A stretch of 64,000 bases of DNA, from NCBI GenBank assembly GCA_977020255.1, contig CDROCS010001567.1, forward strand, positions 1 to 64,000, read 5' to 3'. The translations under genes were made by a program, and so were the position numbers. Below, piece after piece: positions 1 through 64,000 of this stretch (its first letter is position 1; each line of letters opens with the position of its first letter). The notes beneath the pieces are model-generated. The model was not told where the DNA came from and made no database searches. It saw only the letters and a program-made list of their open reading frames with translations. This DNA comes from Obrimoposthia wandeli (taxonomy: Eukaryota).

Positions 1-435
1 TACAGGATAACCGGAATCACCTGGCAACTTATAATTGGATGTTTTCCATTTTTAGCAAAATATCTAATGCACCATCATCACGAGAACGAGTTGCGAGCCC
101 TCAAGAAGAAACAACACCAAACGAGAACCATGATGAGAGAACCAAGAAACTATCAAGAAGATGACAACGACGACGATAATGATAGTCCAGGGAGTATATG
201 CAAAAATACCAGGAAAACCAAAGATTCCGTTACCAGACAAGGAAGAAGTGGCGTTAAACCTATATCCAATGAAGGAATTGAAGGAAGAGAAGGAAAAGTT
301 CAAGAGAGGAATCTTAGTGATAAGAAGGCACAAAGTGAGCTACAGTGAAATTCCATAAGCAGAGGAAAAAGACAAAAGATAATTGAAGAATTCTGAAATC
401 TAGATATCAAATGAGAATCGAAGTAACCACCACAA

Positions 436-740
436 GTAGCAGTAACATTGAACGGAAGAGAATATCTTGCCGAAGTTGATACCGGATCTGCAGTATCAGT
501 ACTGAGTAAAGAAATCTTGTCATCAAAATTAAGAGAAGTATGTCCTAGAAAACAGACATTTGTTAACGTGAATGGTATAGATGTAGTGTCGGGAGGAACA
601 CTGAAATGTTCGTTGAATATCGATGGAAGAGCATTGCAGTTAAATGCTAGAATATTCACGAATTGCGGTAATTCCAGTCATGATTGGGATGGACGTAATA
701 CGAATGTTTGAAGGAATAATTATACTACCAAACAACAAGA
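436..740 (+). pseudogene. Retropepsin-like aspartic protease 1 (frameshifted)
   Basis: LNGREYLAEVDTGSAVSVLS (DTG active site at ~478), then after a frameshift VIPVMIGMDVI (the C-terminal I/LGxD motif). Confidence 0.85.
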
Positions 741-1003
741 GTTATAAGAATGACAGTTCAGTAAGAGAGATAAAAATGTTGAGAGGACCCATAGTCGAAA
801 AGGAAAAATGCACTACGTTCCGTATGGGAGGTTCGTACCCAGACAGAAAACGGGAAGCGCTAGCAAAGTCGATACTTCACTACAAAATGTAAATTTCGGA
901 CCTGGCTACGACGGGGAAAAATAACATATGTGAATCTGTGAGAAAGGGATCCCATGAGATTCGAGGAAGAAGAGACAGAAATATATTAGAACAGTACTAT
1001 TCA

Positions 1004-1985
1004 AAAGGAATGGCACGTAAAATGGCAAGATCAGGTTTAGAAATGTTAAACGCGACAAGCGGGGTACTGGTCAGGAGATAGTAGTACGATGCGTATGGTG
1101 TAGAGTAAAGTTCCAGAGAATGGGAAAAGAATGAAAACCCAATGAGACGTCATAAAAGAGATGCACCAAATTGTCCATTTCTTTTGAAACTGAAAACGTC
1201 AAACGTACCAGAAATCCAAACGGGAAAAGCACCCGATTTCGATTACAGTGACGGGATTCCAAAGGAGAATCCAGCTCTAATAACAGGAAGAGTAATAACG
1301 AATAAGTCGAATTGAAGATATATTCAAAGTTATGCGAAGTGAACGAATGTGACGAACAATATCGAAGTAACTTTCGAAGATCCAAGACTTAAAAAAATTG
1401 GCAAAAAGGGACTTTTTGCTATAAAAAAAGGATGGTAAAGACGTAATTAAATGCCACAAGTGTAAAAAAAGAACGAATTATCGACAGATATACTCTTGAG
1501 CTACCCTAAGAAAATTTTACATCATGAATTTTGCGAATTTTGTATTTTTAAAAACAAAATAAAGCAAAAAGAACAGAAAACAGAATATGTAATCGAATAC
1601 CAAAATCACACGAAAGAGATTTTGGCTCAACAAGACACACCGGTAGTGTCATTCGTGAGAAGGTTATATCCAAAAGAAGCAGAAAGAATCAAGAGGTGGT
1701 AGAATTAAAAATAAAAACTACGCGAAACGGATACGGATCGATTTTTAGAATTACTGCGAGATAAAGATGACGGTACAATCGAAACAAAGAAATGAGGACA
1801 CATAAATGAATTAGAATACGTACTAGAAGATCCGGAATGCACGCAGTTTGCATGGTCAACAAAATAGAAGTTGCCTTTCTACCATGCGGACATGTAAGAA
1901 CATGTTGGAGATGTGCGAATGAAATGGTATCATGTCCGATTTGTCGAAGAATAATAGATCGACAAGTGAGGGAAACATTAGATTT
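1004..1985 (+). pseudogene. Inhibitor-of-apoptosis (IAP)-like module, BIR-BIR-RING, frameshifted
   Basis: BIR1 ~1010-1190: RKMARSG..GTGQEIVVRCVWCRVKF/EWEKNENPMRRHKRDAPNCPFL. BIR2 ~1330-1550: LKKLAKR..DGKDVIKCHKC..ILHHEFCEFCIF. C-terminal RING ~1838-1980: C..CMVNKIEVAFLPCGHVRTCWRCANEMVSCPICRRII, the typical IAP RING. Confidence 0.88.
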
Positions 1986-2093
1986 CACTATCCAAACAAA
2001 GGAAGTGGACTGACAGAGTGTAATAATTCGATAAATACAATATACCATATGGGAAACATAAATGGAGCACAGCGACCAGCAGCCTATCATTAG

Positions 2094-2350
2094 GTAAATA
2101 ATTTAAGAGTAAAAGCCTTAATTGATACAGGTGCTGTAGCTTCGATAGTAAGTGAAGACTGTTTGACAGAGGAACAGAAACGAACAATGGCAGAACCAGA
2201 TGAATTCTTGGTATCGGTCAATGGAGACCCTGTAAAAGTGACGGGAATATTACCATGTACATTTATAATTGGACGTAATACGATCACTATACCAGTTAGA
2301 ATCATGAAAGAATGTCCTGAACCTACAATTTTGGGAGCTGGATGTATTAT
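2094..2350 (+). pseudogene. Retropepsin-like aspartic protease 2 (the canonical pol protease position)
   Basis: VNNLRVKALIDTGAVASIVSE...VSVNGDPVKVTG...PTILG(L)D; intact DTG. Confidence 0.9.
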
Positions 2351-2723
2351 CACAACTCAAAGGGATAAGTATTGATTTACAAGATCCAAGATTGAAGGAT
2401 AGCACATCAAACAGACAAATAAACCAAATTGATGTAATTATAGAGAATCCCATAAATCGGTAAAAGATCGCAATTTCTTATTCAAGGTCACATTATCAGA
2501 AGATAAAGGACCAGTTGTGTTCGAACCATCACGAGATTTCATAGAGAAATACGAATTACCAGTTAGCAGGTGCAATATGCCCTGATCGAAAACTTACAAA
2601 ATACCAGTTAGACTGATAATACAACCAACAATGACATCCTATTATACAGAGGAATGAGGTTGGGAACGATAGCACAGATGGAGAATCCCACCGTGTGTGC
2701 TATGAAACTCGATAAAGATACGA

Positions 2724-5420
2724 ATGATTACGAAAATAGTAATCCAATCAGAAAGATTGACAACTAGAGAAAAGGAACAATTACTTGATCTAATACATAA
2801 ATTTCCAAAAGTAATTGCAAAAAATCCATATGACATAGGAGAAACACCTGTCATAAAACATACAATACCACTGACAGAAGACAAAGTAGTCAGAAGAAGA
2901 CCATATCAGTACCATTACAGTTACAAGATGAAGTAAAAAGTCAGATAGAAGATATGTCACAAACTGGAGTAATTAGACCGAGTGTTTCGCCATTCTCCAG
3001 CACCTGTGGTGCTGGTAAAAAGAAGGATGGGAAAATGAGATTCTGTATAGATTTCAGAGAACTGAACAAGATCACAAGAAAAGATGTGTATCCATTACCC
3101 TCCGAAGAATCGAAGATGCTCGATAAATTGGGTAATTCAGATTATTTTACGACATTAGATTTGCAGAGTGGATACTGGCAAATCGAGATAGAGGAAAGAG
3201 GATAAACTGAAACAGCCTTTTCCTGCGGAGATGGATTATACGAATGCGAAAAGATGCCATTCGGACTGACAGGAGCTCCAGCAACATTTCAGCGTTGCAT
3301 GAATTTTGTACTCGCATCGTGTGCCACGATGGTTTATATCGATGACATAATATTTTCGAAAACGTTTGAAGAACATTTAAAAAATCTTGAAGTTGTATTT
3401 AAAAGACTGGAAAACGCTAAATTAAAAGTTAAACCTACAAAATGCGAATGGGCTAAAGAGCGAGTAACATTTTTAGGACATATAGTATCGAAAGAAGGCA
3501 TTCGACCTGATCCAGCAAAGATCCAAGAAAGTAAAAGCGCATTTAGCGCCAAAGACTGTTAAAGAGACCACAGAGTTTTTTGGGTGCTTGCGAATTATTA
3601 TAGACGATTTGTTGAACATTTTCAGATATAGCAACACCATTGAGAAAGTTGACGAGAAAGATGAGAAGTTCATATGGGGAGAAGAAGCCCAACAAGCGTT
3701 CGAGCATTTAAAAGAAAAGATTGATCAAAGCACCAATATTAGCGTTTCCAGATGCTAAACCGACAAATTCATACTCATGACAGATGCAAGTAACTATGCT
3801 GTAGGAGCGGTATTGGGACAAGAGGATGACGAAGGAAGAGAACACGTCATTGCGTATGCGAGTAGAGGATTAAACAGAGCCGAAAAGAGGATACTCTGTT
3901 ATCGAAAAGGAATGTCTAGCCATAGTGTATTCATGTAGACAGTACAACACTATTTGCTAGGACAAAAAGTATTTACTGTATACAGATCACAAACCACTAC
4001 AGTTCTTATATAAACTTATAGAAGATGAGATGAGTAGATTAAACAGATGGTTTCTAAAATTGGCCGAATTCGATCTAGAAATCCGTTATAGAACCGGAAA
4101 GTCGAATGGCAACGCAGATTGTTTATCGAGATTGACAAATGTAGACGAGAAAGGAAACATAATTCCAGAAGATGAAACCAATGATCAAAAAGGAGAAGCA
4201 AATCTACTGACGATTTTGCTAAAGACGGGTAAAATAGACAAAGAGATCATCAAAGAACAGAAAGAAGATGAAGAACTGAGTCTAATCAAAGAATTGTTGA
4301 AAAGGGGAATCTAAGCAATTGAAATGACGAAAAATACTCGATAAGAAGATCTTGTATATTGTCAATAATGTCGGAAAGATAGTAGTAGTAATTCCGAAGT
4401 CATTGAAAACAGCAGTGATGATCCAGTATCACGACGGAACACTAGGAGGACATCTGTCAGGACGAAAGACAATAGCCAGAATCAAAGAGAGAAGTACCGT
4501 GGGATGGTATGGAAGACGACATAAAACAATGGTGTAAACAATGTAAAGTATGTTTAACCAGAAAAGACACCGGAACTCGTACTAAAGTTCACTGAAACCA
4601 ATGCCAGTTCCCTTAGCACCAATGGAATTCACAGCGATGGATATATTGGGACCATTGAGAGAATCAAGTAAAGGAAACAAGTATGTCATAGTATTTACGG
4701 ATTACATGACAGAGATGGGTAGAAGCATATCCCATGCAGAACCAGAAGGCTGAAACAATGGCACAAATCTTAGTAGAAGAGATAATATTTCATTGCAGTG
4801 CCTAGAAAATTGTTGACGGATCAAGGTAAGAACTTCACTGGAGAAGTCATAAAAGCAGTATCGAAGATATTCGGAATCATGAAGTTACAAACTTCACCAT
4901 ATCACCCACAGACAGATGGTCTGGTAGAAAGGTTTAATAAAACTTTATGTATGATGGTACAATCCTATTGCTCAGACAAGCAAGAGGATTGGGATAAATA
5001 TTTACCTTCATGTTTATATGCTTACAGGAATTCAGTTCGAGAGACGACGGGTCACACCATTCTATCTGATGTATCTCAGACAGAACAATATGCCGATGAA
5101 TCTGGAGTGGACCGAGCCAACATCTCGAGTACCTAGAAACTGAACAATACATTGTCGTCATGAAGGAAAGGTTACAAGATGCTTGGACCAAAGCCGGATT
5201 GAAGTTGAAATTCAATCAAGAAGATTCTAAGGAACAATGTTAAAAAAGCAAAACCACATGAATTTAGAGTCGGAGATCAAGTGATGATATTGTCCGGAAA
5301 TTATCGGACATTCAAGTCTATCGTTTAAACTTCACAGACCATACAAAGGACCATACAAGGTGATCCAGACAACCTCAACAAATTTGAAAGTAATCAACGA
5401 AGAATCGGAATAAAGGAACC
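2724..5420 (+). pseudogene. pol: Gypsy pol (RT, RNase H, integrase), many frameshifts
   Basis: RT: KKKDGKMRFCIDFRELN, DLQSGYWQI, MPFGLTGAPATFQR, YIDD. RNase H: TDASNYAVGAVL, TDHKPL, NADCLSR. Integrase: HDGTLGGH..CKQC zinc domain, LLTDQGKNF, PYHPQTDGLVERFN, GPY motif near 5350. Confidence 0.95.
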
Positions 5421-7058
5421 GATGATTGTACATGCAAATCGATGCAAAGAAATTGCGTTAAAAATAAAGATAATGCGTCACGATATGAGTTAAGATCACA
5501 GAAATCGAAATCGAATACCAATACCATTAAACTTACACGAATGGTAAGTGATCGGAACTATAAACATGATGACGAGTGGTAGCGAGAAAAAACCAATAAT
5601 TGGTATGCTCAAGAATGAAGTACCAAGAGGAAAAGGAAGTAATCCGACACATCGCACCACAAGAGATATTAGAAGAAGACGAAGAGATAATAGTTGTTTT
5701 CGAAAAAACACAACCCACAGATGTGGCTAAAGAAGTCATTGTGAAAGATGCACTGACAAACGAATTTCTGTGCGAACTTAGGTGTCATACTACGACGGAA
5801 ATACATTAGTCGCAGCACTTTATCAAATTCCAATGTGTTTACGACTGAGAAAGTGATAATCCAGCTCTGACTGGCATAGGCTTATAGTTGTAGAACTATG
5901 ACGGTACTGAAGCAGGACTAGCCAGTCAGGAAGAAAAGAACCGGCCGGTGGTCACATACTGCATGGTACACCAAAAGACTCAAACAAGAATACCACGATG
6001 TAATAATGGTATTACGTAATTCACATGGGAAAAGAGATATCATGAGTCCATTTAATCGACGCTGACACTGAAAAGATAAATTGTCAGATGGACACCAAAT
6101 GCTTTGATGGAAAGACAATTGTACATGTTGTATACCAGAATCTCACCGGTTAGACACGGATCAAACGGAAGTATCTGTAAGGTTGAGCGTAATAGAAGGA
6201 TTCCATTCGCCAACCCATCCGGAAGTGACTAACAATAAAATCATCAAAGCAACAGCAGAGTTACGCATTGACAGCGGATACCGGAAGTGGGAAGCAAAAA
6301 ATAAAAAGCCACAAAGAATCAATATGATCCGAGAACAAGTGACCAACTCAATCAGCCAAAATATCATGCTGAAATAGTATCATCCGCACCAAGTGTAATT
6401 ACATCGATAAACGACAATTATAATTTTACTAAAAAATCGATGGCCGTCATCAACTGAGATACGAAGTAAACTTAATTAATTATGCGAAGACACCGATATC
6501 TAAGCTGAATGTTACCTATTTTGATGGATTGTCCATCATGAGTAAATTGGAAACAATTGTCATGTGCTATGGAGCAGTTCCAAATTGGAATACTTAAAGA
6601 TAGTGTAATACCCTATCCGATTCACAAACACGAAGGAAATCAATCCAGTTATTCTAACCCCTTCATTAATTTCAGTCCAGACAGACATACCAGAGTACCC
6701 TTCGAGCGAGTCTAGTGAAGACAGCGAACCGGAAGTAACGATACAGAATCAACAGAATCCGAAGATAACATAATAGAGCGATTCGGAAGAACCATGGAGG
6801 TTGAATTCGCTAAAGAGAGCAGAAAAAGACAAAACATAGAATTCGTGAAACAGAATATACAAGAAAGACGAATTAAATCTGCAGAAGAGACCGAATCGGA
6901 AGAAGACTCAACAAAGGAACAGACATCAGAGACAAAGATGAATACCTCTCCAGCAATACGAATGCTGAGAGGAAAGAAACTAATAGAAACTAACTAACAT
7001 CGACGAACAGATAGAGAAGAGATTAGAAAGACTAAAACTTGAAGAGTCAGAATTAATG

Positions 7059-7470
7059 CCACCAATGAGTGAGATCATTCCAGATGAAGTTATGCCTCGG
7101 AAGTAATGTGGAAGATGCAACAGATGAAAAAGAAACTGTTGGAACAAGGATAACATACGTGATCCCAACGTTACAATGAATCACAAATCACAATATCAGA
7201 CAATCAGAGCTATGACATTAGAGTAAAAAGACTCAATGGACGCTAATCTTCTCGAATGGTTTGTGAAACAAACGAAATACTTCACAGAGAACTCCGGAAC
7301 CAGGAAAAGTGTTAGTACATTGTCAGAAAGGAATTTCTCGATCAGCAACTCTAGTGATAGCATACCTAATAAAGACTAGACGAATGCAGGTACTAGAAGC
7401 GCTAAAATACCTACAGGAGAGAAAATGCCGAGCCAAATCCTATTTTTTGGACAGTTGGCAAATTACCAAC
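7059..7470 (+). pseudogene. Dual-specificity protein phosphatase domain (MKP/VH1-like), frameshifted
   Basis: Intact P-loop VLVHCQKGISRSATLVIAYLIK (HCx5R) at ~7312-7375. Upstream fragments read PMSEIIP..LGS..DA..LLEQGITYV.NVT; downstream LEALKYLQER. Confidence 0.9.
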
Positions 7471-7569
7471 TTCTGTTACCAGAGCTGTAAGACAGATGGA
7501 CGACGTACGGATCAAAAGGAAAGAATTTCCTCAAGCATTATCATTGACCGGGTTATTCTTAGCCGGAGT

Positions 7570-7945
7570 CGACAAAATTACACAGATAATGCGCAAAGTA
7601 TTTTTATGTCATCCAGGAGATATAGACACTGCTGGATTAAAGTTCCACAGTATCAACCGAGTAGTAACGTTGTTGAAGTCGGAAACGAGATAATTAGTCT
7701 GTGTCAAAATACTGAAGATGACACCACTCGATACATACATGCTTCCAATCGAGAGATAAACGATGCACAACAACATCTGACGAAATTGACTCAAACCATC
7801 CAAGCCGAAGTCACAGAAGGAAACGGCGTTCTGATATATCAGAAAAAGGTACAATGTTAGCGCCTACCATGGGTGTATCCTTGTTGGTAGAGTACCATGG
7901 TCACACGCCAGAAGAAGCGATGGTCTACATCAGAACAGAATGAAT
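7570..7945 (+). pseudogene. Second DSP-fold domain, probably catalytically dead
   Basis: ITQIMRKVFL..GDID..L.F.SINRVVTL; I.DAQQHL...IQAEVTEGNGVLIY..KGTMLAPTMGVSLLVEYHGHTPEEAMVYIR. This follows the DSP layout but has no Cys or Arg in the P-loop. Confidence 0.55.
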
Positions 7946-8039
7946 TGAATGCGGAATTCAAACCGTTACTCGTTCGAGAAATAGAGAAGTACGCCGAAAA
8001 GGAAGCAGCAACGAGAAACAAATGAAGCTACAACAACAG

Positions 8040-8290
8040 TGCCAAGCTTTCAATACCAAGGTGCTAGCGATAGGCTTGTTAAGTTGTTTAATGCCGATAA
8101 CGGGAGCACAAGGAAATAGACTCCAACCACGGAAATAGTTCCTGGTTCAACGAAATCCACAATTACACCATACAGTACCATACGCCGGCACTGATGATGC
8201 TATTAGTATTGTTAGGACTAATTGATGTGTGGATCATCCGAAAATGTCTTCGATCTATGAGAACCGACAGTAAAAGATTTCGGTTGTAAA
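8040..8290 (+). pseudogene. Small membrane-protein remnant
   Basis: Signal-like KVLAIGLLSCLMPITGAQG, then TM-like TPALMMLLVLLGLIDVWIIRKCLR; the TM segment is conserved in copy 2 (60590-60670). Confidence 0.5.
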
Positions 8291-8291
8291 G

Positions 8292-8663
8292 ATGAAAAGA
8301 CCAAATGGACCAACGAACAAAGTGCTTGTGTATCTAGACGAAAGGATCGAGGACAACATAGTAAACGAAGCGATATTTTACCCACAAAACAGAATACTGA
8401 ATCAATTTCGAATAGATTACGAAGCTGACCGACAGCGCACACTTGACCGAATATCAACAACATTCGCCGGATGCAAGCGAAGTAAACGAGTTGTAAAGGA
8501 AATACAAAAAGATGCTGATACAAAAGGACCAACGTACATATTCGACGGCAGTGTCATCAAAACACGTGAGTATGGAAGTAAGAGAGTGATAATCGAAACG
8601 ATGAAGGACATAAAACATGCTTGTCCGCAAAAACGGATTTGGAAAGTTGACGATACAAGGTAA
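8292..8663 (+). CDS. Accessory ORF of unknown function (123 aa)
   Basis: Open frame starting MKRPNGP; a clearly homologous, decayed sequence lies at 60684-61060 in copy 2. Confidence 0.55.
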   Translation: MKRPNGPTNKVLVYLDERIEDNIVNEAIFYPQNRILNQFRIDYEADRQRTLDRISTTFAGCKRSKRVVKEIQKDADTKGPTYIFDGSVIKTREYGSKRVIIETMKDIKHACPQKRIWKVDDTR

Positions 8664-9344
8664 ACCAGTACAGTTGATTATCGGAAGAAATGGAATCGAG
8701 AGATGTCAAAACAACGACAGATAACAAAACGATCTAATCAGAAACAGATATCTCTCAAACGATTGATAATTAAAACCCTTTGCAAAAGGTCAGTCAAGGC
8801 CCTGTGCACCGTTGCACAAGTTGATCTATGGAGTAGTAATTGGATTGGTACTGCAAGCCATGCCAACCAGTAAACCGAATTGATGACACTATCCGAATAT
8901 AATTTACATTTGAGAAATCTAGACAACACCCTAGAAATAATCAAGACATCCCACAGTAGAGCCGTGATGATCATGTGTGTAAAGGATGTCCAGGACGAAT
9001 GTGTATAGTCCCAGCGACCGAAATGATAACACTTAATGGACATTATGGAGTTAGTGTTGTCACATGTGAAGACTACATATTTGGACAAACTAAAATAGTG
9101 CTTCTCAGTGACATGTCAACCAAAGTGCACACAAATTTAAAATATTAACCATCAAGAGTAAAGGAATACCAGCAGTACGTTATGGTATTCTAGAATTAGT
9201 TAATCAATACTGGCACTGATCTGGATTTATAATATTGATACTACTCATCTTGTTTTTGTTGTACAAAGATAGAGTTGGATCAAAAAAGAAACGTCATGAT
9301 CTCGCAAGACGAGCAGGTCAAATGAATTTACAAAATTCAACACA

Positions 9345-10715
9345 ATGATACCAAGACCAGCATTCCTAAATGAACCAGCACCAGAGTATCAGCCAACGAT
9401 ATACGAACATATCGAGGAAAGACCATACTACATGAGTCACTTGAGTTATCCTAGAGAAGTTCCTGAGATTAGGAACCAGACGATCAGAGGAATCATGCTG
9501 ATCATGCAAATCACCACGACCGAGGCTGGTTATGAGATCGTGATCAGTAAATGGAGACAAAATACGATACGGGCGTTATCCATAAAAATACCTCTAATAA
9601 AAACAAATTACGTAATAGACATTCACCTACAAACATCAGCAACCGAAAATGTCGATCAGAAATTGTATGTCATTCGCCAGATCAAATTAAAGATTGACCA
9701 ACATAAACTTTACTACCGACTGATATTATTCTACCATGAAAAGGTATTGTACCTACGAATAACAATATCAAAAAGGAAACGGATTGTTCAAATTATCCGA
9801 ACAAAGTCATTAATATTGCCTAACGACGAGCGCATCTGGAAAGTTGTCGACAGGATTATGATCACAGGTAGACGACGTAAAACCGTATGGAATTCCGTTA
9901 GATTATTCTTCAGATTGTTAGAAACTGACAAAGTAACAGTGTCGTGTCCCAATCCAGATGGTGGAATCAGATCCGAAATTCAAAACCAAATGTTAGTACC
10001 ACATTTTGATACAGAACGTCTATGTAACCGAATTCCCAGCAATGCTAGAGAGACCTCTACCATAATCATAGTAATAACAGGTGAAATATCCTACATAACT
10101 CTAAGATACCAGACACGTCGATTTCGTGGACTCGGTATAAGTATCAAACCCAGGAAAATCATTTCCGGAAAACCAATCATAGTCATAAAAAAGAAGGCAA
10201 GGGTAAACGGAAGTAAACGCCATTCCGAGAAGCCAAAAGTAATCATAACAAAGACAGAAGCGAAAGAAAAAGAGCTCAATTCCAGAAACCAAAGTACAAT
10301 TATTAAGAGGACAAGAGTGAGGGGAACGATCCCACTAGATCCCAAACATCATTTCCAATCCAAAATAATAATACCTGTTCCATCAGAAACAAAACACCCA
10401 AATCCACGAATTTTTAGAAAATCGGACATAATACATGGAGACCGATCAAAACCCATGGAAATGTCATTCGAACCGACAAACAACAAAATGAAGTATGATT
10501 ATCAACCATCAGACAGCGGAATAACAGCGGTCAATGCTCTAATTGGAATGGCCGTAGTGTCAACAGCAGTGGTTCTATTGACAGTTGTTTGCGTAAAAGG
10601 CAGTCAAATATGCCCAAGAATACGACGAAAATGCGAAGGACTGCGATGCTGTGACACACCCATCATGGAGGAAGTGGAATTGCGACCCTTACCTCCGCCT
10701 CCCATCAAGATATGA
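9345..10715 (+). CDS. Large accessory ORF with a C-terminal transmembrane helix (456 aa), possibly env-position protein
   Basis: Uninterrupted ORF; TM ALIGMAVVSTAVVLLTVVCV followed by a Cys/Arg tail and LPPPPIKI; homologous open ORF at 61280-62350. No recognisable env family motif, so the env identity is unproven. Confidence 0.75.
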   Translation: MIPRPAFLNEPAPEYQPTIYEHIEERPYYMSHLSYPREVPEIRNQTIRGIMLIMQITTTEAGYEIVISKWRQNTIRALSIKIPLIKTNYVIDIHLQTSATENVDQKLYVIRQIKLKIDQHKLYYRLILFYHEKVLYLRITISKRKRIVQIIRTKSLILPNDERIWKVVDRIMITGRRRKTVWNSVRLFFRLLETDKVTVSCPNPDGGIRSEIQNQMLVPHFDTERLCNRIPSNARETSTIIIVITGEISYITLRYQTRRFRGLGISIKPRKIISGKPIIVIKKKARVNGSKRHSEKPKVIITKTEAKEKELNSRNQSTIIKRTRVRGTIPLDPKHHFQSKIIIPVPSETKHPNPRIFRKSDIIHGDRSKPMEMSFEPTNNKMKYDYQPSDSGITAVNALIGMAVVSTAVVLLTVVCVKGSQICPRIRRKCEGLRCCDTPIMEEVELRPLPPPPIKI

Positions 10716-10838
10716 TGAGTCAGAGGAGGTTGTAGATAAATTAGTGTGTGAAATATGTAGAAATATCTAGAAGTGATTGTACAAATAGTAGAAATATATA
10801 AAACTCATGTAGAAATTAATCATCATCATGTATTTAGA

Positions 10839-11138
10839 ATGTCCGAAGAATGCCCAATATGTTTGGAAGATCTAACCGAACGAAGAACAAGACCCGAAAC
10901 CTGCAACCATTTACACCACGAGGAATGTTTATCGACATGGATCAGAACTTATGGACAGTTCGGACATCCAACATACCCTTGTTGCCCTGTATGCAGAAGA
11001 CAATTCGCAAGATTCATCATGTTAGAACCCAACCAAGAGGATGTATATGTACAGGTGGTATTCTGTTGGAAGAATTTCGGAGAGTGTTGGTGTTATTACT
11101 GTTTGTCAGATCGACAAAATCAGACCACTTTTGTGTAA
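10839..11138 (+). CDS. RING-H2 protein 1 (putative E3 ligase)
   Basis: MSEECPIC..CNHLHHEEC..CPVC (C3H2C3) plus a tail FCWKNFGECWCYYC. Confidence 0.85.
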   Translation: MSEECPICLEDLTERRTRPETCNHLHHEECLSTWIRTYGQFGHPTYPCCPVCRRQFARFIMLEPNQEDVYVQVVFCWKNFGECWCYYCLSDRQNQTTFV

Positions 11139-11198
11139 ACATCACACAACCACCAGTCCTCAATCGAGCCCAAATTCAACATCAACCCTCCCACAGTA

Positions 11199-11512
11199 AT
11201 GTCTGGAGAATGTTCCATCTGCTACGAGAGCATCGTGGACTTCTACACCAAGCCCAACAACTGCGACCACCTCTTCCACGTCGAATGCCTCGAGACGTGG
11301 ATCCCCATTGCCAACAGCAACAATCCCCTCGACTTCCCAACCTGCCCGATGTGCAGAGCGACCTTCTCAGTACACTACGTGTACAACCAGGGACAGCCTC
11401 AAGCAGTGGTACCCATCGTACACTGCTGGAAAACATCTGCGATTGCTGGTGCTCGTTCTGCGTGAAGGAGCGAAGCACAGGCCAGCCAATCCCCAACAAT
11501 AATCGAAGGTAA
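11199..11512 (+). CDS. RING-H2 protein 2 (1-nt deletion near its C-terminus)
   Basis: MSGECSIC..CDHLFHVEC..CPMC. The tail HCW/NICDCWCSFC lies in a shifted frame; copy 2 reads HCWKDICDCWCIFC in frame. Confidence 0.85.
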
Positions 11513-11835
11513 CTTTCTGACTTGAACGTGACATCATGAACTACCCTGTGTATCGCATACCGCGATAAATTAGCTACCATAATTGTAATCATAATTATAT
11601 AATCTTGTGAACTGTAAATTGACCATTACCATTTTTATGTATGATGTTTAACTGAAATTGTAATTATTATACTGAATTTCTAAAAAGACAATTTTTTATG
11701 CTTAGTGTGAATGCGTAAACATGCCTAAATCGAAACAAAACTCGGTAGGATTAGATAACTAAGGATTCGTTTTGAAATAAAATTTAAATTAACGATGAGA
11801 ACGGTGAACCCCAAATTGAAAGGAGTTATTTTCTT

Positions 11836-12372
11836 ATGCAGATGAAGTGCTCTGTATGTATGGAGAAGATTTGGGCGGTATCAGCATCCCCTGTCGGCTG
11901 CCGTCACAAATTTCACGAGGAGTGCCTCTATTTGTGGGCCAAGGCTCGACCCCCCGGCCATATCACATGTCCACTGTGCCGGACACCCTTTGGCAAATGG
12001 ACGCTCCAGAGCCGTGGAAGGCACAAGGGCACCCGATCGCCTGCCAGCTGCATTGGTGGCATACATTGCCAATGCTACGTATGTCTCGCACGCCGGCGCG
12101 ACACACAACTGGGCATCCGCGAGAGATGGCGGTCTAGTCGAGACTGCCACTCGTGGTTCCAGGCCAGACGTCTCTGGATAGAAAATCACGCGATGAACGG
12201 GCAGTATTTCGACCTGTTTGTCGAGCGTACATTCATACTCCGGAGCCAACAACTACACCTGTACAACGGGGACAGTCCGTCCTTTCCCGACCTACCCCTG
12301 GAGCAGGTCCTGCGCTACCTGGCCAGTCGGAACCAGCCGACAATTACAATTGACCTAACTTATGACAATTGA
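11836..12372 (+). CDS. RING-H2 protein 3
   Basis: CSVC..CRHKFHEEC..CPLC plus a tail SCIGGIHCQCYVC; open 178 aa. Confidence 0.85.
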   Translation: MQMKCSVCMEKIWAVSASPVGCRHKFHEECLYLWAKARPPGHITCPLCRTPFGKWTLQSRGRHKGTRSPASCIGGIHCQCYVCLARRRDTQLGIRERWRSSRDCHSWFQARRLWIENHAMNGQYFDLFVERTFILRSQQLHLYNGDSPSFPDLPLEQVLRYLASRNQPTITIDLTYDN

Positions 12373-12544
12373 TCCTTTCCTCCCTTCTTTCCTTCCTAAT
12401 CCTTGGTTATGCATGTAGTTTTGTGTATAGATAATAATGTATAGTCTGAGACTTGCTCCAAATTATACATTATGTTTCCCACTAAAAACCGGGATTTTGA
12501 GAAATTTTGTTTTGGGCATGTTTGATGAATTGAATGACTGATTT

Positions 12545-15500
12545 TGTAGGGATGGACCTAAAATCAACAGCCAGAGGCTTATAAGAGTAAAATCGATACG
12601 TTCCGGGGACGTAACTTTTTGGAACCCCGAGATATGTTAGATTTAGGAATGGAGAAATTATTAAAAATTAAATAATTTATAGTGAAAATGAAAATCCTTG
12701 AAAGCAAGGTTAGAATTTAATTTAATAAATTTTAAAAATCAAAATTAAAATTATTGGGTTAAATAAGATTAAATGTTAGAGGACCACGAAGGTCGTGTGA
12801 AATGTGTAGGTATGTATAGAAATTTATATCTAACAAAAGGGCCCCAAAAAAGATATAGCTCTGCAAGTTATTGCAAGAAAAGAAGACTAATTGGAAAATT
12901 GGAAAAAAGGAAAAGAAGAAGTGCAAACCGGAATTCAGTCGACGTCAGCAGCCACGTCCCGACAGCTGTTCCTGAAGTGAGAAAATTTAATTAATTTATT
13001 TGAAATAAATACTTATCGCAGCAGGCCAGAAGACTGAGTGACAGATCACGTCACCGGGAAGTCATTGGAAAGGCCAGAGCTAAGTAGGCAGCTGGTTTGT
13101 GTCGACTGTGTGAGTCGTTGATTTGAAGTCGCCGAAGGGAGTCGAGGAAAAAGACTATATAGTCTACGGAAATTAGCCCAAAAAATCAATAGTGCAGAGA
13201 GACTAAATTCAGTAGAGAAAACAGAATTCTCAGCCTATACCGACCGATCGGAATTCAACGCCTCAAATTCTCGGTGGAATTCAGTAAGTCCAGAACAAGC
13301 TCTCTAAATTGAATAAAATAATCTGTTGTCGTGAAAGAAATAATAAGATAATTGAATTTTGAGATCATAAGATAAATTGAATAAAATAATCTGTTGTCGT
13401 GAAAGAAATAATAAGATAATTGAATTTTGAGATCATAAGATATTTTGAATAAAATAATCTGTTGTCGTGAAAGAAATAATAAGATAATTGAATTTTGAGA
13501 TCATAAGATATTTTGAATAAAATAATCTGTTGTCGTGAAAGAAATAATAAGATAATTGAATTTAAAGATAATAAGATAATCTGTTGTCGTGAAAGAAATA
13601 ATAAAGAATGGTGAATTTTTGAGATCATAAGATATTTTGAATAAAATAATCTGTTGTCGTGAAAGAAATAATAAGATAATTGAATTTTGAGATCATAAGA
13701 TATTTTGAATAAAATAATCTGTTGTCGTGAAAGAAATAATAAGATAGATCTGAAAGAAATAATAAGATAATTGAATTTTGAGATCATAAGATATTTTGAA
13801 TAAAATAATCTGTTGTCGTGAAAGAAATAATAAGATAATTGAATTTTGAGATCATAAGATATTTTGAATAAAATAATCAAAGAAATAATAAGATAATTGA
13901 ATTTTTGAGATCATAAGATATTTTGAATAAAATAATCTGTTGTCGTGAAAGAAATAATAAGATAATTGAATTTTGAGATCATAAGATATTTTGAATAAAA
14001 TAATCTGTTGTCGTGAAAGAAATAATAAGATAATTGAATTTTGAGATCATAAGATATTTTGAATAAAATAATCTGTTGTCGTGAAAGAAATAATAAGATA
14101 ATTGAATTTTGAGATCATAAGATATTTTGAATAAAATAATCTGTTGTCGTGAAAGAAATAATAAGATAATTGAATTTTGAGATCATAAGATATTTTGAAT
14201 AAAATAATCTGTTGTCGTGAAAGAAATAATAAGATAATTGAATTTTGAGATCATAAGATATTTTGAATAAAATAATCTGTTGTCGTGAAAGAAATAATAA
14301 GATAATTGAATTTTGAGATCATAAGATATTTTGAATAAAATAATCTGTTGTCGTGAAAGAAATAATAAGATAATTGAATTTTGAGATCATAAGATATTTT
14401 GAATAAAATAATCTGTTGTCGTGAAAGAAATAATAAGATAATTGAATTTTGAGATCATAAGATATTTTGAATAAAATAATCTGTTGTCGTGAAAGAAATA
14501 ATAAGATAATTGAATTTTGAGATCATAAGATATTTTGAATAAAATAATCTGTTGTCGTGAAAGAAATAATAAGATAATTGAATTTTGAGATCATAAGATA
14601 TTTTGAATAAAATAATCTGTTGTCGTGAAAGAAATAATAAGATAATTGAATTTTGAGATCATAAGATATTTTGAATAAAATAATCTGTTGTCGTGAAAGA
14701 AATAATAAGATAATTGAATTTTGAGATCATAAGATATTTTGAATAAAATAATCTGTTGTCGTGAAAGAAATAATAAGATAATTGAATTTTGAGATCATAA
14801 GATATTTTGAATAAAATAATCTGTTGTCGTGAAAGAAATAATAAGATAATTGAATTTTGAGATCATAAGATATTTTGAATAAAATAATCTGTTGTCGTGA
14901 AAGAAATAATAAGATAATTGAATTTTGAGATCATAAGATATTTTGAATAAAATAATCTGTTGTCGTGAAAGAAATAATAAGATAATTGAATTTTGAGATC
15001 ATAAGATATTTTGAATAAAATAATCTGTTGTCGTGAAAGAAATAATAAGATAATTGAATTTTTGAGATCATAAGATATTTTGAATAAAATAATCTGTTGT
15101 CGTGAAAGAAATAATAAGATAATTGAATTTTGAGATCATAAGATATTTTGAATAAAATAATCTGTTGTCGTGAAAGAAATAATAAGATAATTGAATTTTG
15201 AGATCATAAGATATTTTGAATAAAATAATCTGTTGTCGTGAAAGAAATAATAAGATAATTGAATTTTGAGATCATAAGATATTTTGAATAAAATAATCTG
15301 TTGTCGTGAAAGAAATAATAAGATAATTGAATTTTGAGATCATAAGATATTTTGAATAAAATAATCTGTTGTCGTGAAAGAAATAATAAGATAATTGAAT
15401 TTTGAGATCATAAGATATTTTGAATAAAATAATCTGTTGTCGTGAAAGAAATAATAAGATAATTGAATTTTGAGATCATAAGATATTTTGAATAAAATAA

Positions 15501-16508
15501 TCTGTTGTCGTGAAAGAAATAATAAGATAATTGAATTTTGAGATCATAAGATATTTTGAATAAAATAATCTGTTGTCGTGAAAGAAATAATAAGATAATT
15601 GAATTTTGTGATCATAAGATATTTTGAATAAAGTAATCTGTTGTCGTGAAAGAAATAATAAGATAATTGAATTTTGTGATCATAAGATATTTTGAATAAA
15701 GTAATCTATTGTCGGGAAGACAATTGAATTTTAGTAAATTACTGTCAAGTAAATTATTGTCGGGAAGACAATTTAAATTGTAGTAAATTATTATTGAGTA
15801 AATTATTGTCGGGAAGACAATTTGAATTTGAATTTTGGTAAAATTATTGTCAAGTAAATTATTTTCGTGAATAAAAATTGAAGCTTTAAATAGTAATTTA
15901 ATCTCGTGAAGACAAATTGAAAATAAACTGATTGTTGGAATCTAAGGAATTTGATAACGTATCCCTATTGTTCATAAGGGAATCTAAACTTAAGAGGACA
16001 TCAATATTGAAGCTAAAATTCAAATCAGTACAGTTTAGAGCAACAAGCTCCCTAAATTCATTCTCTGTTTTAGAGCTTCAGCTCTTTAGGCTACTCAAAT
16101 TTTAGATCAACAGCTCTCTAAAATCAATCCCTATTTTTAGAGTAAAGACTCTAGTGACTCAAACAAACATAACCGTAAAATCGATACGTGGTTCATCCCC
16201 ACTTGTGTAGAGACTTACAGAAGTCTTAGGAATTTTACTACCATTTTTTAGAAAATACGTACGTAAACGTATTGTTGTGTTAGTTACGTGAATTACAAAT
16301 AAACAATTTCCTACATTAGAACAAGTTGTTTTTGCACCCTTCAGAATAAGAGACATCAAATCAAATACCTTCAGATAGAACAAGAGATAGGCAACCATAA
16401 CACTAAGTAGGCCACGACCAACTTTAAGACCTGCTTCTAATCGAACTCACGTTGGGGCCATCCGCACATAAGAGGATCTGTACCAAGTTTCGTATAGAAA
16501 CCCCAACA
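12545..16508 (+). repeat. Putative ~4 kb 3' LTR (left boundary approximate)
   Basis: Non-coding. 16170-16508 aligns by eye with the reverse complement of 56885-57290 (ACCTTCAGAT..GGCCACGA..GAACTCACGTTGGG..GAGGATCT..TATAGAAACCCCAACA). 12779-12805 shares AGGACC..GAAG.GTCGTGTG.AAAT with 53837-53864. No clear PPT found. Confidence 0.6.
13311..15712. repeat. Tandem array of a 68-bp unit, about 35 copies
   Basis: Unit GAATAAAATAATCTGTTGTCGTGAAAGAAATAATAAGATAATTGAATTTTGAGATCATAAGATATTTT (period checked: 13925 to 13993). Near-identical centrally, irregular at the left end and decaying at 15700-15920. No spacers, so not CRISPR. Confidence 0.97.
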
Positions 16509-58050: not shown

Positions 58051-61000
58051 GCGCTAGAGATGGTTGATAAATTAGGTAATTCAAACTACTTTACGACATT
58101 GGATTTGCAAAGTGGATACTGGCAAATCGAAAAAGAGGAAGAGGATAAACACAAAACAGTTGTTTCCTGTGGAGATAGATTGTACGAATGTGAAAAATGC
58201 CATTCGGACTGACAGGAGCGCCAGTAACATTTCAGTGTTGCATGAAGTTTGTGCTCGCATCGTGTGCAAACACGATGGTTTATATTGATGACATCATAAT
58301 ATTTTCTAAGTCGTTCGAAGAACATCAAAAATCTTGAAGTTGTATTTAAAAGACTGGAAAATGCTAAATTAAAAGTAAAACCTACAAAATGTGATACGAG
58401 CAAGTAATATTTTTAGGACATATAGTATCAAAAGAAGGCATCTGACCTGATCCAGCAAAGATCGAGAAAGTAAAACCACATCCAGCTCCAAAGACTGTTA
58501 AGAAAATACAGAGTTTTTTAGGTCTTGCGAATTATTACAGACGATTTGTTAAACATTTTTCCGACATAGCAACACCATTCAGAAAAGAAGCACAACAAGC
58601 GTTTGAGGATCTAATGGAAAGACTGATAACAGCACTGATATAAGCGTTTCCGGATATAAATTGAAAATTCATACTAATGACATATTCAAGTAACTATGCT
58701 GTAAGAGCAGTTTTAGGACAAGAGGATGAGAAAGGAAGAGAATACATCATCACATATGCCAGTAGAGGGTTTAATAGAGCAGAAAGAGGATACTCTGTTA
58801 TTGAAAAAGGAATGTCTAGCCATAGTATATTCGTGTAGACAGTTCAGACACTACTTGCTAGGACAAAATGTATTCCTGTAGACAGATCACAAACCACTTC
58901 AGTTCTTGTATAAATATAGAGACGAGATGAGCAGTTTAAACAGATGGTTTCCGAAATGGGCTGAATTTGACCTAAAATTCCGATATAGAACCGGAAAGTC
59001 GAATGGCAACGCAGATTGTTTGTCGAGATTGGCAAATGTAGACAAAAAAGGAAACATAATACAAGAATAAGGTCAATATGAAGTCAATAACCAGAGAGGA
59101 GAAGCAAATCTACTGACGATTTTGCTGAAAACTGGTAAAATAGACAAAGAAATCATCAAAGAACAGAAGGAAAACGAATAATTGAGTCTAATTAAAGAAC
59201 TGTTAATGAAAGGAGATCTAAATGATGAAATGATGAAATGAAGAGAAAATACTCTATAAAAGAAGGAATCTTGTATATTGTCAACAATATCGGAAGGATA
59301 GTAGTAGTAATTCCGAAGTCATTGAGAGCGACAGTGATGATCCAGTACGCGATGGAACACTGGGAGGACATATGTCAAGACGAAAGACAATATCGAGAAT
59401 CAAAGAGAAATACTATTGGGATGGTATGAAAGACGAGATAAAACAATGGTGTAAACAATGTAAAGTATGTTTAACCAGAAAGGATACAGGAACTCATACT
59501 AAAGTTCCATTGAAACCGATGCCAGTTTCGTTGGCACCAGTGGAATTCACAGCGATGGATATATTAGGACCATTGAGAGAATCAAGTAAAGGAAATAAGT
59601 ACGTCATAGTATTTACGAACTACATGACGAGGTGGGTAGAAGCATACCCTATGCAGAACCAGAAGGCTGAAACAATAGCACAAATCATGGTAGAAGAGAT
59701 AATATTTCGATATAGAGTACCTAGAAAACTATTAACAGATAAAGAGAAGAATTTCATCGGAGAAGTAAAAGCAGTATCAATGATATTAGGGATCATGAAG
59801 TTACAAACTTCACCATATCACCAACAAACTGACAGGTTAGTAGAGAGGTTAAATAAAACTCTATGTTTGATGGTACAACCTTATTGCTCCGATAAGCAAG
59901 AGGATTGGGATAAGTATTTACCTTCATGTTTATATGCTTACAGTAATTCAGTTCGAGAGGCGACGGGTCACACACCATTCTATCTGATGTATCTCAGACA
60001 GGAGCTCAGGAACAAAGAGCCGATGATAGTACATGCGAACCGATATAAACTGGTACCGAATAAAGATAATGCGTCACGATATGAGCTAAGATCACAGAAA
60101 TTGAAGCCGAATACCAATACAATTAAATTTACACGAATGGTAAATGATCGAAATTACATAAATACGATGACAAATGGTAACAATGAAAAACCAGTGAGAA
60201 TTGGTATGCTTAGAAGGAAAGAGAAGTAATAAGAAGTAATCCGACACATCATACCTCAAGAGATATTAGAAGAAGACAAAAGAGATCATAGTCGTTTTCG
60301 AAAAAACACAACCGACAGATGTAGCGAGAGAAGTTATTTTGAAAGATGCATTAACAAAAGAATTTCTGTGCGAACTTAGAGGGTCATATTTTGATGGAAA
60401 TACACTAGTCGCGAAACTTTTTCAAAACTTCAATGTGTTTACGACTGAGAAAGTGATCATAGAAATCACACTGACACCAAACGTAGTTGCATGGCAGAAC
60501 TATGACAGTACAGAAGTAGGACTAGTCAGTCAGGAAGAAAAGGAACCGGCTGGTGATCAAATACTTCATGGAACACCGACACTGATGATGTTACTAGTGT
60601 TGATAGGACTAATCGATGTTTGGTTAATCAGAAAATGTTTTCGACTCATAAGAACCGACAAAGAAAGATTCTAGTTTGTGAAAATGAAGAGACCAAATGG
60701 ACCAAAGACGGAAGTACTTGTTTACATAGACAAAAGAATAGAGGATAAAATAGTAAATGAAGCGATATATTACCCACAAAACAGACAACTGAATCAATTC
60801 CGAATGGACTACGAATCTGACTAACAGCACACACTCGATAGAATATCAGAAACGTTCGCAGGATGTTGGCGAAGAAAACGAATTGCGAAGTAAATACAAA
60901 AAGAAGCGGATACAAAAGGTACAACATATATATTCGACGGCGATGTCATCAAAACACGTGAGTATGGAAGTAAGAGAGTGATAATCAAAAACAAAGAATG

Positions 61001-61279
61001 ACGTAAAACATACTTGTCTGCTAAAAATGGATTTGGAGACCTAGTGATACAAGGCAAACAAGTACATTTGATTATAAAAAAACGGAATCGAAGAAATGTC
61101 AAACAACGACAGATAACAAAGACAAAATGATGCAACCGGAAACAAATATGTGTGAAACAAATAATAGAAAAGAGATCCGGAAACAGAAAATAATAGGCAT
61201 CATACTGGTCATACAAGTCACAACAACTGAGGCTGGTTAGGAGATCTTTGTCAGTAAATGGAGACAAGATACGATACGA

Positions 61280-62350
61280 GTGCTATACATAGAAATACCT
61301 TTACTAAAAAGAAATCACATAGTGGACATTCAACTACAAACATCTGCAACTGAAAATGTCAACCATAAATTGAACATTATCCGTGATATCAGAATAAAGA
61401 TCGATGAACATTTACTCTACTACCGACTAATTCTTTTTTATTACAAAAATATGTTATACCTACGAATAACCATATCTAAAAGGAAACAGATTATCCAAGT
61501 CATTCAAACAAAATTAGTAATATTTCCTAACGACGAACGCATCTGGAAAGTTATCGACAGGATTATTGTCACCGGTAAACGACGTAAAACTGTATGGAAT
61601 TACATTAACCTGTTTTGCAGATTGCTGGAGATTGACAAGGTAACAGTGGCGTGTCCCAATCCAGTTGATGGAATCAAATTCGCAATACAACCCCAAATTT
61701 TAATACCACATTATGATGCAGAATGTACATGTAACCAAATTCCCAGTGATGCTAAAGAAACCTCTACCGTAATCATCGTAATAACAGATCAAATATACTA
61801 TGTAACTCTAAAGTACCAGACAAGTCAATTCAATGGAATAGGCACGAGGATTAGACCCAGGAAACCCCATTCTGGAAAACCAAGCACAATTATAAAAAAG
61901 GCAAAAGTGAAAGGAAGAAAGCCCAATTCCAGAAACCGAAGCACAATCATCGAGAGGAAAAGAGTGAAGGAAACGATTCCACTGGATCTCAAATCTCGAA
62001 TAATAATACCACTTAGACAAAAAACAAAAAGTCTAAAACCTCGAATGATCAAAACATTTAAAATTACATATGGAAATCAAACAGCACCACTCGAAACGCC
62101 ATTCAAACCGACGAACATCAAAGGAGAGTACGATTACCAATCCACAGACAGCAGAATGACACCAGTCAATACTTTAATCGTAATGGCCGTAGTCTCAACT
62201 GCAGTATTTTTACTAACAGTAATGTGCGTAAAAGGCAGCCAGGTATGCCCAAGGATACGACGGAGATACAAAGGGCTGCGATGCTGTAACACACTCATGA
62301 TGGAGGAAGTGGAATTGCGACCCTTGCCTCCGCCTTCCATCAAGATATGA
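61280..62350 (+). CDS. Paralog of the 456-aa membrane ORF
   Basis: Open for 356 codons; aligns with 9345-10715 using in-frame indels; same TM and LRPLPPP.IKI end. Confidence 0.7.
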   Translation: MLYIEIPLLKRNHIVDIQLQTSATENVNHKLNIIRDIRIKIDEHLLYYRLILFYYKNMLYLRITISKRKQIIQVIQTKLVIFPNDERIWKVIDRIIVTGKRRKTVWNYINLFCRLLEIDKVTVACPNPVDGIKFAIQPQILIPHYDAECTCNQIPSDAKETSTVIIVITDQIYYVTLKYQTSQFNGIGTRIRPRKPHSGKPSTIIKKAKVKGRKPNSRNRSTIIERKRVKETIPLDLKSRIIIPLRQKTKSLKPRMIKTFKITYGNQTAPLETPFKPTNIKGEYDYQSTDSRMTPVNTLIVMAVVSTAVFLLTVMCVKGSQVCPRIRRRYKGLRCCNTLMMEEVELRPLPPPSIKI

Positions 62351-62480
62351 CAAGTCAAAGGAGGTTGTAGATAAATTATTGTGTAAAAATATGTACAAAA
62401 TGTTAAGAAAGTGAGTGTAAAAAACAAATGTAGAATTATGTAGAAATTATGTAGAAATTAATTGTCATCATGTATTTAAA

Positions 62481-64000
62481 ATGTCTGGGGAATGTCCAAT
62501 ATATTTAGAAGATATACTAGAACGAAGAGCAAGGCCCAATACCTACAACCACCTATTTCACGAGAAATGTTTATCAAAATGGATAATAACTTATTGAGAG
62601 TTACCTCATCCAACATATCCTCGCTGCCCTGTATGCAGAAGACAACTCACAAAGTACATCATAATAGAACCCAACCAAGAGGACGTCGATGTACAGGTGG
62701 AATTTTGTTGGAAAAGCTTGAGAGAGTGTTGGTGTTTTTTCTGTATATCAGAACGACAGAATCCGACAGAATCCGACCAAATCTTTAAACATCACACAAC
62801 AACAAACCCTCAATCGAGTCCAAATTCAACACCACCCCTCTCACAGCAATGCCTGGAGGATGTTCCATCTACTACGAGAAAATCCAGGACGACTACACTA
62901 AACCAAACAACTGCGGCCACGAATTCTATATTCAATGCCTCGAGACCTGGATCCCCATCGTCAACAGCAACACGCCCCTCGACTACCCAACCTGCCTAAT
63001 ATGCAGGGCATCCTTCTTGGTATATTCCATATACAACCGAGATTGCCTCCAAGCAATGGTATCCATCGTACACTGCTGGAAAGACATCTGCGACTGCTGG
63101 TGTATTTTCTGCGTGGAGGAGCGACGGACAGGCCAGCCCAACAGCCAACAATAATCGAAGGTAACTTTTTGACAAAAACGCGACATCATGAACTAACCCT
63201 GTGTATCACATACCGCTGTAAAATATCTACCATAAAATTGTAAATTATAATGGAATAATCTTGTAAAACCGTAAATGACCTTAACCATTTTTATGTATGA
63301 TGTTTATTTGAAATTGTAATTATTATATTGATAAACACCTAAGAAGACAATTTTTATACACTTAGAATGTGCAGATAGGTACCCAAGTAATATGACAAAC
63401 TTCGGCAATTAAAATATTAAGAATTAAATCATATAAGATCAAGGATGAGAAGGTAATTTAACTAATACACCACCACTCATGAAGAATGCTGTGTTCAGTT
63501 TGTCTCAACAAACTCCGAGGCCCGTCGGCAGTTCCCCAAGGGTGCGGTCACCACTTTCATGAAGAGTGCCTATACACCTGGGCCACATCCCGGTCAGTCA
63601 ACAACCTTACCTGCCCCATATGCCGAGCCGCTTTCGAGGATTGGACGGTCCAATGCCGTGGCCGTCTGGTAGGCAGACACTCACCCACCAGCTGTATCAG
63701 TGGCGAGTAGTGCCGATGCCCCATATGCCCAGTACGCCGTCTCGACGCGCAGTGACAAGTTTGAGAGTTGTGGCGGTCCAGCCGGGACCACCACTATTGG
63801 CAGTATGCTCGGAGAGTGTGGCTCAACACTCGAGAGCGACACATTTCCGGCGTTTGGGGCACCCCAACGTTTCGTCAGAGCCCCAACTTGAACATTTTCC
63901 AACAGCTGGGTCTCTATTTCGGTGATGTTCCAGTCTTTTCAACTCTACCCCTGGAGCAGGTGATGCTGTTCCTGGAGGAACAGAACCAACCCGTACAGAC
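62481..64000 (+). pseudogene. Three decayed RING-H2 ORFs of copy 2
   Basis: RING1 has C>Y changes and an in-frame TGA; RING2 (62849-63154) has C>Y and H>Y at zinc ligands; RING3 (from 63486) has an intact RING followed by a TAG at 63710. Confidence 0.8.

Follow-up and report, generated by a model that had tools for sequence, protein, structure and literature searches.

The three small RING-H2 genes that lie in tandem in the window (the whole stretch of 64,000 nucleotides of Obrimoposthia wandeli DNA that was analysed) belong to a Burro-like giant Ty3/gypsy element as accessory genes and are not genes of the host, and all three are under purifying selection, with omega of 0.2-0.4. The combination of RING and Cys-rich tail that they encode, and a reading frame that overlaps two of them, match no described family in the databases searched. 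The overall picture preferred here, to which a probability of about 0.5 is given, is of accessory E3 ligases that would be made from separate mRNAs, with long alleles of the third gene being SUMO-targeted ubiquitin ligase (STUbL)-like and acting against SUMO-dependent silencing. The identity of the target is its weakest step.

A host gene cluster is ruled out by the location of the triplet inside an LTR element that is flanked, in the one copy checked, by a 4-bp target-site duplication. In the four other copies compared, the element is ~23.6 kb from LTR to LTR, with LTRs of about 2.26 kb (TG...CA). Its coding span, assembled by coordinates from several copies, is about 16.5 kb and specifies a single polyprotein of ~5,000 aa. 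Pfam matches, collected from the open frames of more than one copy, place its domains in the order Gag zinc knuckle, ubiquitin-like domain, fusion glycoprotein (PF24664), BIR, RING-HC, protease, RT, RNase H, integrase and two DSP. The env/fusion match (E 3e-96) is in frame between zf-CCHC and protease; BIR and RING-HC are matched at E 3e-9 and 4e-11, and the ubiquitin-like domain between Gag and Env is a weak match (Pfam E 0.04; locus L040:5980-6160). This last domain, being the element's own, is a possible partner of its RINGs. The DSP pair is in tandem after the integrase (window about 7090-7900; L041), and since HCxxGxxR is present in the first only, the second may be a pseudophosphatase. 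At the polyprotein end (window 9345-10715), about 900 aa without a Pfam family are followed by a hydrophobic segment and then by a stretch rich in Cys; the terminus itself is proline-rich. The primer-binding site after the 5′ LTR begins TGGTGCCCC (L036:2738-2760), which we take to resemble elongator tRNA-Met; no clear polypurine tract was seen upstream of the 3′ LTR.

The likeness to Burro is one of published layout. In the parts covered of the account of planarian Burro/GYPSM1, one huge polyprotein has env in frame between gag and pol, and the features shared with the present element are the Gag zinc knuckle, the ubiquitin-like domain, a mononegavirus-like fusion protein between gag and protease, BIR, the PR-RT-RH-IN series, accessory ORFs and thousands of copies (PMC6431247). 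Burro1 also has BIR plus RING in its polyprotein (as cited in the covered portion of PMC13465017). Differences are that Burro/GYPSM1 is over 30 kb, and that two DSP follow the integrase here. MATH, BCL2-like, ankyrin and dUTPase domains had no Pfam match in the polyprotein; according to the same partly covered account these vary among Burros, some being detected only by HHpred (PMC6431247).

The window begins within the element, and the triplet follows the polyprotein stop and precedes the 3′ LTR, the start of which is about 260 nt past RING3 (Table 1). Spacers are short: 123 nt from the polyprotein stop to RING1, then 60 and about 340 nt. A 22-base sequence comprising the RING1 acceptor and start has 3,897 exact matches in the 1.35-Gb genome, and at least 150 copies have an identical RING1 protein. 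Further Burro lineages were sought in this genome, and every one of the 30 env loci looked at falls in this one family (88-98%). Near-identical young copies (window 1-12400, many loci) have many single-base indels, and assembly errors, as opposed to decay, may account for some of the breaks. While the LTR ends are common to copies (91%), the interior is wholly different (12634-16508 versus L034:1959-4218), being here a 68-bp array of 35 units. Elsewhere in the window are an open Tc1/IS630-type DDE transposase of 339 aa (54579-55598, minus strand), an inverted repeat pair of about 490 bp and 95% identity that is MITE or foldback-like (25085-26311), and probable host exons at 28671-29042 (minus strand) and 49985-51660 (plus strand), one of which we take to resemble glutathione synthetase, the other encoding a low-complexity charged protein. 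Another LTR element in the genome (L157, L158), presumably BEL/Pao-like, carries an in-frame ubiquitin fusion and, upstream, fragments captured from host genes.

Table 1. Features of the element in the window. Acceptor counts are of ORFs with YAG 0-2 nt before the ATG, among which a few loci may be counted twice.
Feature	Positions	Strand	Basis or remark
3′ two thirds of polyprotein gene, broken in this copy: env end, BIR, RING-HC, protease, RT, RNase H, integrase, two DSP, unassigned region and C-terminal hydrophobic segment	1..10715	+	Pfam on frames of other copies, mapped by tblastn; A-rich sense strand
Putative splice acceptor TTTAG, 1 nt before RING1 ATG	10833..10837	+	52/52 RING1 ORFs; use predicted
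RING1, 99 aa: RING-H2, beta-hairpin region, Cys tail (11064-11102)	10839..11138	+	Pfam, paralogue alignment
Overlapping open frame over RING1, spacer and RING2; candidate overprinted fourth gene	10850..11512	+	225 codons in unbroken copies
Putative splice acceptor CACAG, 2 nt before RING2 ATG	11192..11196	+	46/46 RING2 ORFs
RING2, 101 aa in unbroken copies; tail codons (11424-11461) out of frame here	11199..11502	+	ORF here 11199-11465
Putative splice acceptor TGCAG, abutting RING3 ATG	11837..11841	+	63/67 RING3 ORFs
RING3, 176 aa: RING-H2, hairpin, Cys tail (12049-12084), helical region, disordered C-terminus	11842..12372 (ORF from 11836/11842)	+	Pfam, model
C-terminal ITIDLT of RING3, SIM-like motif	12343..12360	+	likened to RNF4 VDLT and VZV ORF61 LTIDL
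3′ LTR (TG...CA) with internal 68-bp tandem array at 13309-15718	12634..16508	+	ends 91% to LTR of another copy
Second copy, older and decayed: RT-IN, deletions, RINGs at 62481, 62849 and 63486	58057..64000	+	76-84% nt identity to copy 1

A preliminary description of this DNA had proposed an element-specific, tandemly duplicated family of small E3-type RINGs, and that proposal stands, the genes being under purifying selection and their tail having no known-family match in the databases searched. It did not name the element, and it passed over the splice acceptors, the SIM-like end of RING3 and the overlapping frame. The three C3H2C3 RING ORFs that it recognized all exceed the Pfam zf-RING_2 cut-off. 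Its statement that the order of the triplet is preserved in the second copy holds; all three ORFs there are damaged by stops or lost Cys/His. RING2 of the present copy is itself disrupted by small indels near 11,390-11,435; it is of full size with an in-frame tail in 24 of 30 young loci (chosen by identical RING1, the window itself included). The paralogues are 25-37% identical to each other, and in 27 sequences representing all three the eight zinc ligands, Pro50 and Arg53 are invariant, with Trp34 nearly so (at least 90%). Trp34 and Pro50 are, we presume, E2-contact positions and Arg53 the linchpin, so that conservation at these positions makes active ligases likely, and RING1-3 are predicted, with high though not full confidence, to be active RING-H2 E3 enzymes.

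An AlphaFold model of RING3 has pLDDT of 85-93 over residues 1-70, which comprise the RING and a beta-hairpin (53-65), and is poor beyond; it superimposes on the RNF4 RING with Z 6.7 and rmsd 1.6 over 53 residues. Fold searches with it gave matches to the RING part only, among which ICP0-family models recur, none at E<=0.001. A word-indexed protein search with RING1 returned no match and one with the alignment 44 candidates, none of which passed, and the ESM Atlas provided no usable match for RING3 residues 52-176. The nearest ESM Atlas clusters to RING1 (score 0.91-0.94) are small stand-alone RINGs of large DNA viruses and polinton-like viruses. Separately, 29 viral loci match the RING core. 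Matches cover the RING and at most the hairpin, and the Cys tail is absent from the best 150 of the 15,365 database matches. What we take to be polinton-like DNA polymerase fragments adjoin copies of the element (flanks of L034 and L038), and viruses of the polinton-like kind could have supplied small RING genes, but the likeness itself is not evidence of origin.

The tail, of the pattern C-x5/6-C-x-C-x2-C, had been described as following the RING in each ORF. In this copy it is in frame in RING1 (CWKNFGECWCYYC) and RING3 (CIGGIHCQCYVC), and in RING2 it is out of frame after the indels. Its conservation in further copies, a check set at that time, is borne out by 42/44 RING1, 37/37 RING2 and 35/40 RING3 full-length ORFs (two loci being counted twice). 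That one tail is common to all three can be upheld by score for RING1 versus RING2 (HHalign 96.6%); the RING3 tail is alike in spacing only, its score against the other two being 10-11 where column-shuffled controls have a mean of 9.4-9.6 and a maximum of 17-18 (30 shuffles). In all three paralogues, however, the first tail Cys is 24 residues past the last RING Cys and is followed by CxCxxC, a common register that favours one origin for the three tails. The earlier impression of unfamiliarity agrees with the searches made: five tail pieces had no Pfam match at E<=10, and the tail was absent (0/150) from the best 150 of the 15,365 RING profile matches among 1.84 billion proteins. The tail is probably a Cys4 module that would bind a single zinc, and together with the hairpin it may serve as a surface for substrate or partner; AlphaFold pLDDT is about 56 over the RING3 tail.

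At the other end of RING3 is a feature of a different type. Long RING3 alleles terminate in [TI]IDLT-x-D, with the I, D, L and T kept in 19, 19, 20 and 19 of the 20 alleles that reach the motif (23 aligned), in a context where positions 165-168 vary widely. This SIM-like motif falls in the low-confidence, unstructured end of the model; there is one per RING3 protein and none of this type in RING1 or RING2. Viral precedent is provided by VZV ORF61, a SUMO-targeted ligase with an N-terminal RING and a C-terminal SIM, LTIDL (Kd 15 uM), which, in the portion of that report covered, depends mainly on this one high-affinity C-terminal SIM (10.64898/2026.03.11.710994). ORF61/ICP0 and RING3 thus have in common an N-terminal RING, a closely similar C-terminal motif and a proposed lifting of SUMO-based repression; RING3 differs in being RING-H2, 176 aa, retroelement-borne, and in having a single SIM-like motif and a Cys tail. 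Convergence is the probable source of the resemblance. With RNF4 the common elements are a RING plus a type-b SIM reading VDLT, but in RNF4 four SIMs precede a C-terminal RING, a multivalent arrangement in the opposite order (PMC3901395, in the part covered), and RING3 has no such cluster. By analogy, and at slightly better than even odds, long RING3 alleles look like putative SUMO-targeted ubiquitin ligases in which the terminal TIDLT would dock on SUMO and the N-terminal RING would ubiquitylate SUMOylated proteins, as with ORF61. The SUMO exon of this genome is closest to flatworm SUMOs.

The motif is far from universal. Of 39 young copies sampled without bias (plus-strand matches to the RING1 start in the order listed, less one fetch of the wrong size), 29 have RING1 and 26 RING2 at full length with the tail, and 27 have a RING3 of at least 160 aa; IDLT is present in 15 of the 39. 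Only 10 of the 27 long RING3 ORFs end with IDLT, and alleles of 165-170 aa without it are widespread, as illustrated by one SIM-bearing allele end with 272 exact genomic matches and one SIM-less allele end with 283. The motif is therefore not needed in cis for spread. When 59 distinct RING3 proteins are placed on a tree (built from residues 1-160 without frameshifted or repeated rows, with a midpoint root and no outgroup), gain or loss of the motif requires at least two changes and the motif is on both sides of the root, a distribution compatible with losses. From these comparisons the motif appears old and selected, yet dispensable in cis.

Its patchiness, with over half of young copies lacking IDLT, speaks for an explanation in which the RINGs are active accessory E3s whose substrates are picked by the hairpin and Cys tail and not via SUMO. 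On this account, which we consider unlikely, the ligases would tune apoptosis or innate signalling together with the polyprotein BIR-RING and the phosphatases, or would turn over the element's own proteins, with IDLT being a localisation aid or incidental. Conservation of the tail in all three genes and the BIR-RING, DSP and ubiquitin-like domains that the element also encodes are in keeping with it; the close match of IDLT to a proven viral SIM, and its maintenance against variable flanks over dS above 1, are not.

The mode of expression has its own alternatives. YAG is at 0-2 nt before the ATG of virtually every RING ORF (Table 1), against a background of 68 among 1,206 flanking-DNA ATGs and 20 among 250 within the element (5.6-8%), and in 32 distinct RING3 upstream sequences the last four bases alone are invariant. 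This suggests one spliced or trans-spliced mRNA per RING gene. That 3′ ORFs of LTR elements are typically spliced is stated in the part covered of PMC5408684, and flatworms have both operons and a trans-spliced leader ending in AUG (PMC12582326, portion covered), so that trans-splicing is an alternative to cis. Each RING would then, as seems likely, be translated from its own mRNA after cis- or spliced-leader trans-splicing onto the YAG. The competing possibility is that the genes are functional but that ribosomes reach their starts by reinitiation or leaky scanning on RNA that is genomic or internally promoted, with the AG inherited from duplication or reflecting start context. The short spacers are congenial to it, as is a search for spliced retrocopies in which none of 17 copies altered at an acceptor (3 + 14 pattern matches) qualified, all being mutated ordinary copies, though the patterns would miss some donors. 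It is nevertheless doubtful, given the practice of other LTR elements and the retention of YAG in three such diverged paralogues and in RING3 upstream sequences that have otherwise drifted. Four sequencing runs from one sample of unrecorded kind have even, DNA-like cover, and in the rows listed neither a joint nor a loose end falls at an acceptor; as the runs look like DNA they are uninformative on splicing.

A further layer of coding may be superimposed. The overlapping frame begins 11 nt after the RING1 ATG and is stop-free in 46 of the 56 copies in which both RING1 and RING2 are full length, including subfamilies at 80% RING1 identity, whereas each of the 56 has 2-9 stops in the other alternative frame. 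Synonymous shuffles lead to an expectation of 5.9 stops in the overlapping frame, with P(0)=0.0005, a test that counts as one event because the copies are related. In the polyprotein control, the same relative frame is not depleted (207 versus 222 stops) and 0/155 windows are open. Four-fold-site divergence is 0.17 for RING1 and 0.23 for RING2 against 0.27-0.33 for the polyprotein end, from one young copy versus 24 older and with only about 20-25 sites per gene. The product has no Pfam family. An overprinted fourth gene is accordingly a candidate rated at a little short of an even chance, RNA-level constraint being the alternative. In the young family the frame is already open at the base directly following the RING1 acceptor, and translation begun at a leader AUG would therefore run into it; a stop is present there in three copies from among the most diverged.

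Selection was gauged by pairwise omega, calculated on full-length ORFs only, with broken ORFs left out, two repeated loci dropped and the pairs being non-independent. At dS 0.3-0.6 it is 0.36 for RING1 (82 pairs), 0.26 for RING2 (165) and 0.20 for RING3 (46), and for RING3 at dS>=0.6 it is 0.28 (605 pairs). RING3 is the most variable, with a mean identity over the first 99 aa of 0.80 versus 0.92 and 0.93 for the other two; positive selection on it was considered and set aside, no region having pN above pS. Another explanation is that the ligases serve the animal, in stem-cell survival or stress tolerance, and are kept by mutualism and not conflict; a Burro1 product, B-IAP, reportedly shields stem cells from apoptosis (Lee et al. 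2026, as cited in the covered portion of PMC13465017). Host-beneficial cargo of this type is improbable in view of the thousands of mobile copies and the fast allelic turnover of RING3, and no fixed host locus was met among the loci looked at. Passively carried, non-functional captured sequence, for which the broken RING2 of this copy and the three broken RINGs of copy 2 might speak, is largely refuted by purifying selection, omega being 0.2-0.4 between subfamilies, and by the full-length RING1 and RING2 of most unbiased copies.

What accessory ligases would act on is suggested by work in other animals. In Drosophila, SUMO connects piRNA targeting to chromatin silencing (PMC8490990, part covered), and in planarians removal of a nuclear PIWI causes BURRO1 RNA to rise (PMC8532177, part covered). 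The SIM-like motif makes degradation of host silencing factors a specific hypothesis, and SUMO-dependent chromatin-silencing factors acting on the element can tentatively be put forward as targets, with the allelic diversity of RING3 perhaps reflecting conflict with the host. A more ambitious version, rather unlikely in its entirety, would have a retrotransposon-encoded STUbL, convergent with ORF61/ICP0, dismantling SUMO-dependent piRNA silencing, its operon-like cassette being resolved by host spliced-leader splicing and including an overprinted fourth gene, with SIM+ and SIM- RING3 alleles as helpers and free riders.

The element type and the Burro1 polyprotein RING were already known; the 3′ RING-H2 accessory cassette is new within the literature covered. 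The triplet is not mentioned in the covered portions of the Burro texts (figures and supplements of Grohme 2018 and Lee 2026, which are outside that scope, may show these ORFs), and the tail, the SIM-like end, the overlapping frame and a retrotransposon STUbL were not found in the literature searched, again with Grohme 2018 and Lee 2026 outside scope. In its position, the triplet resembles the accessory genes that complex retroviruses carry at their 3′ end. To our knowledge, transposon-encoded anti-silencing proteins are rare in animals. An anti-silencing role for the cassette, argued by analogy, is plausible. Burro has already been tied to PIWI silencing and to planarian stem-cell survival, and since RNAi and RNA-seq are routine in planarians the idea would be directly testable there. 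With thousands of copies and a polymorphic SIM-like motif, the family may constitute a natural experiment on counter-defence.
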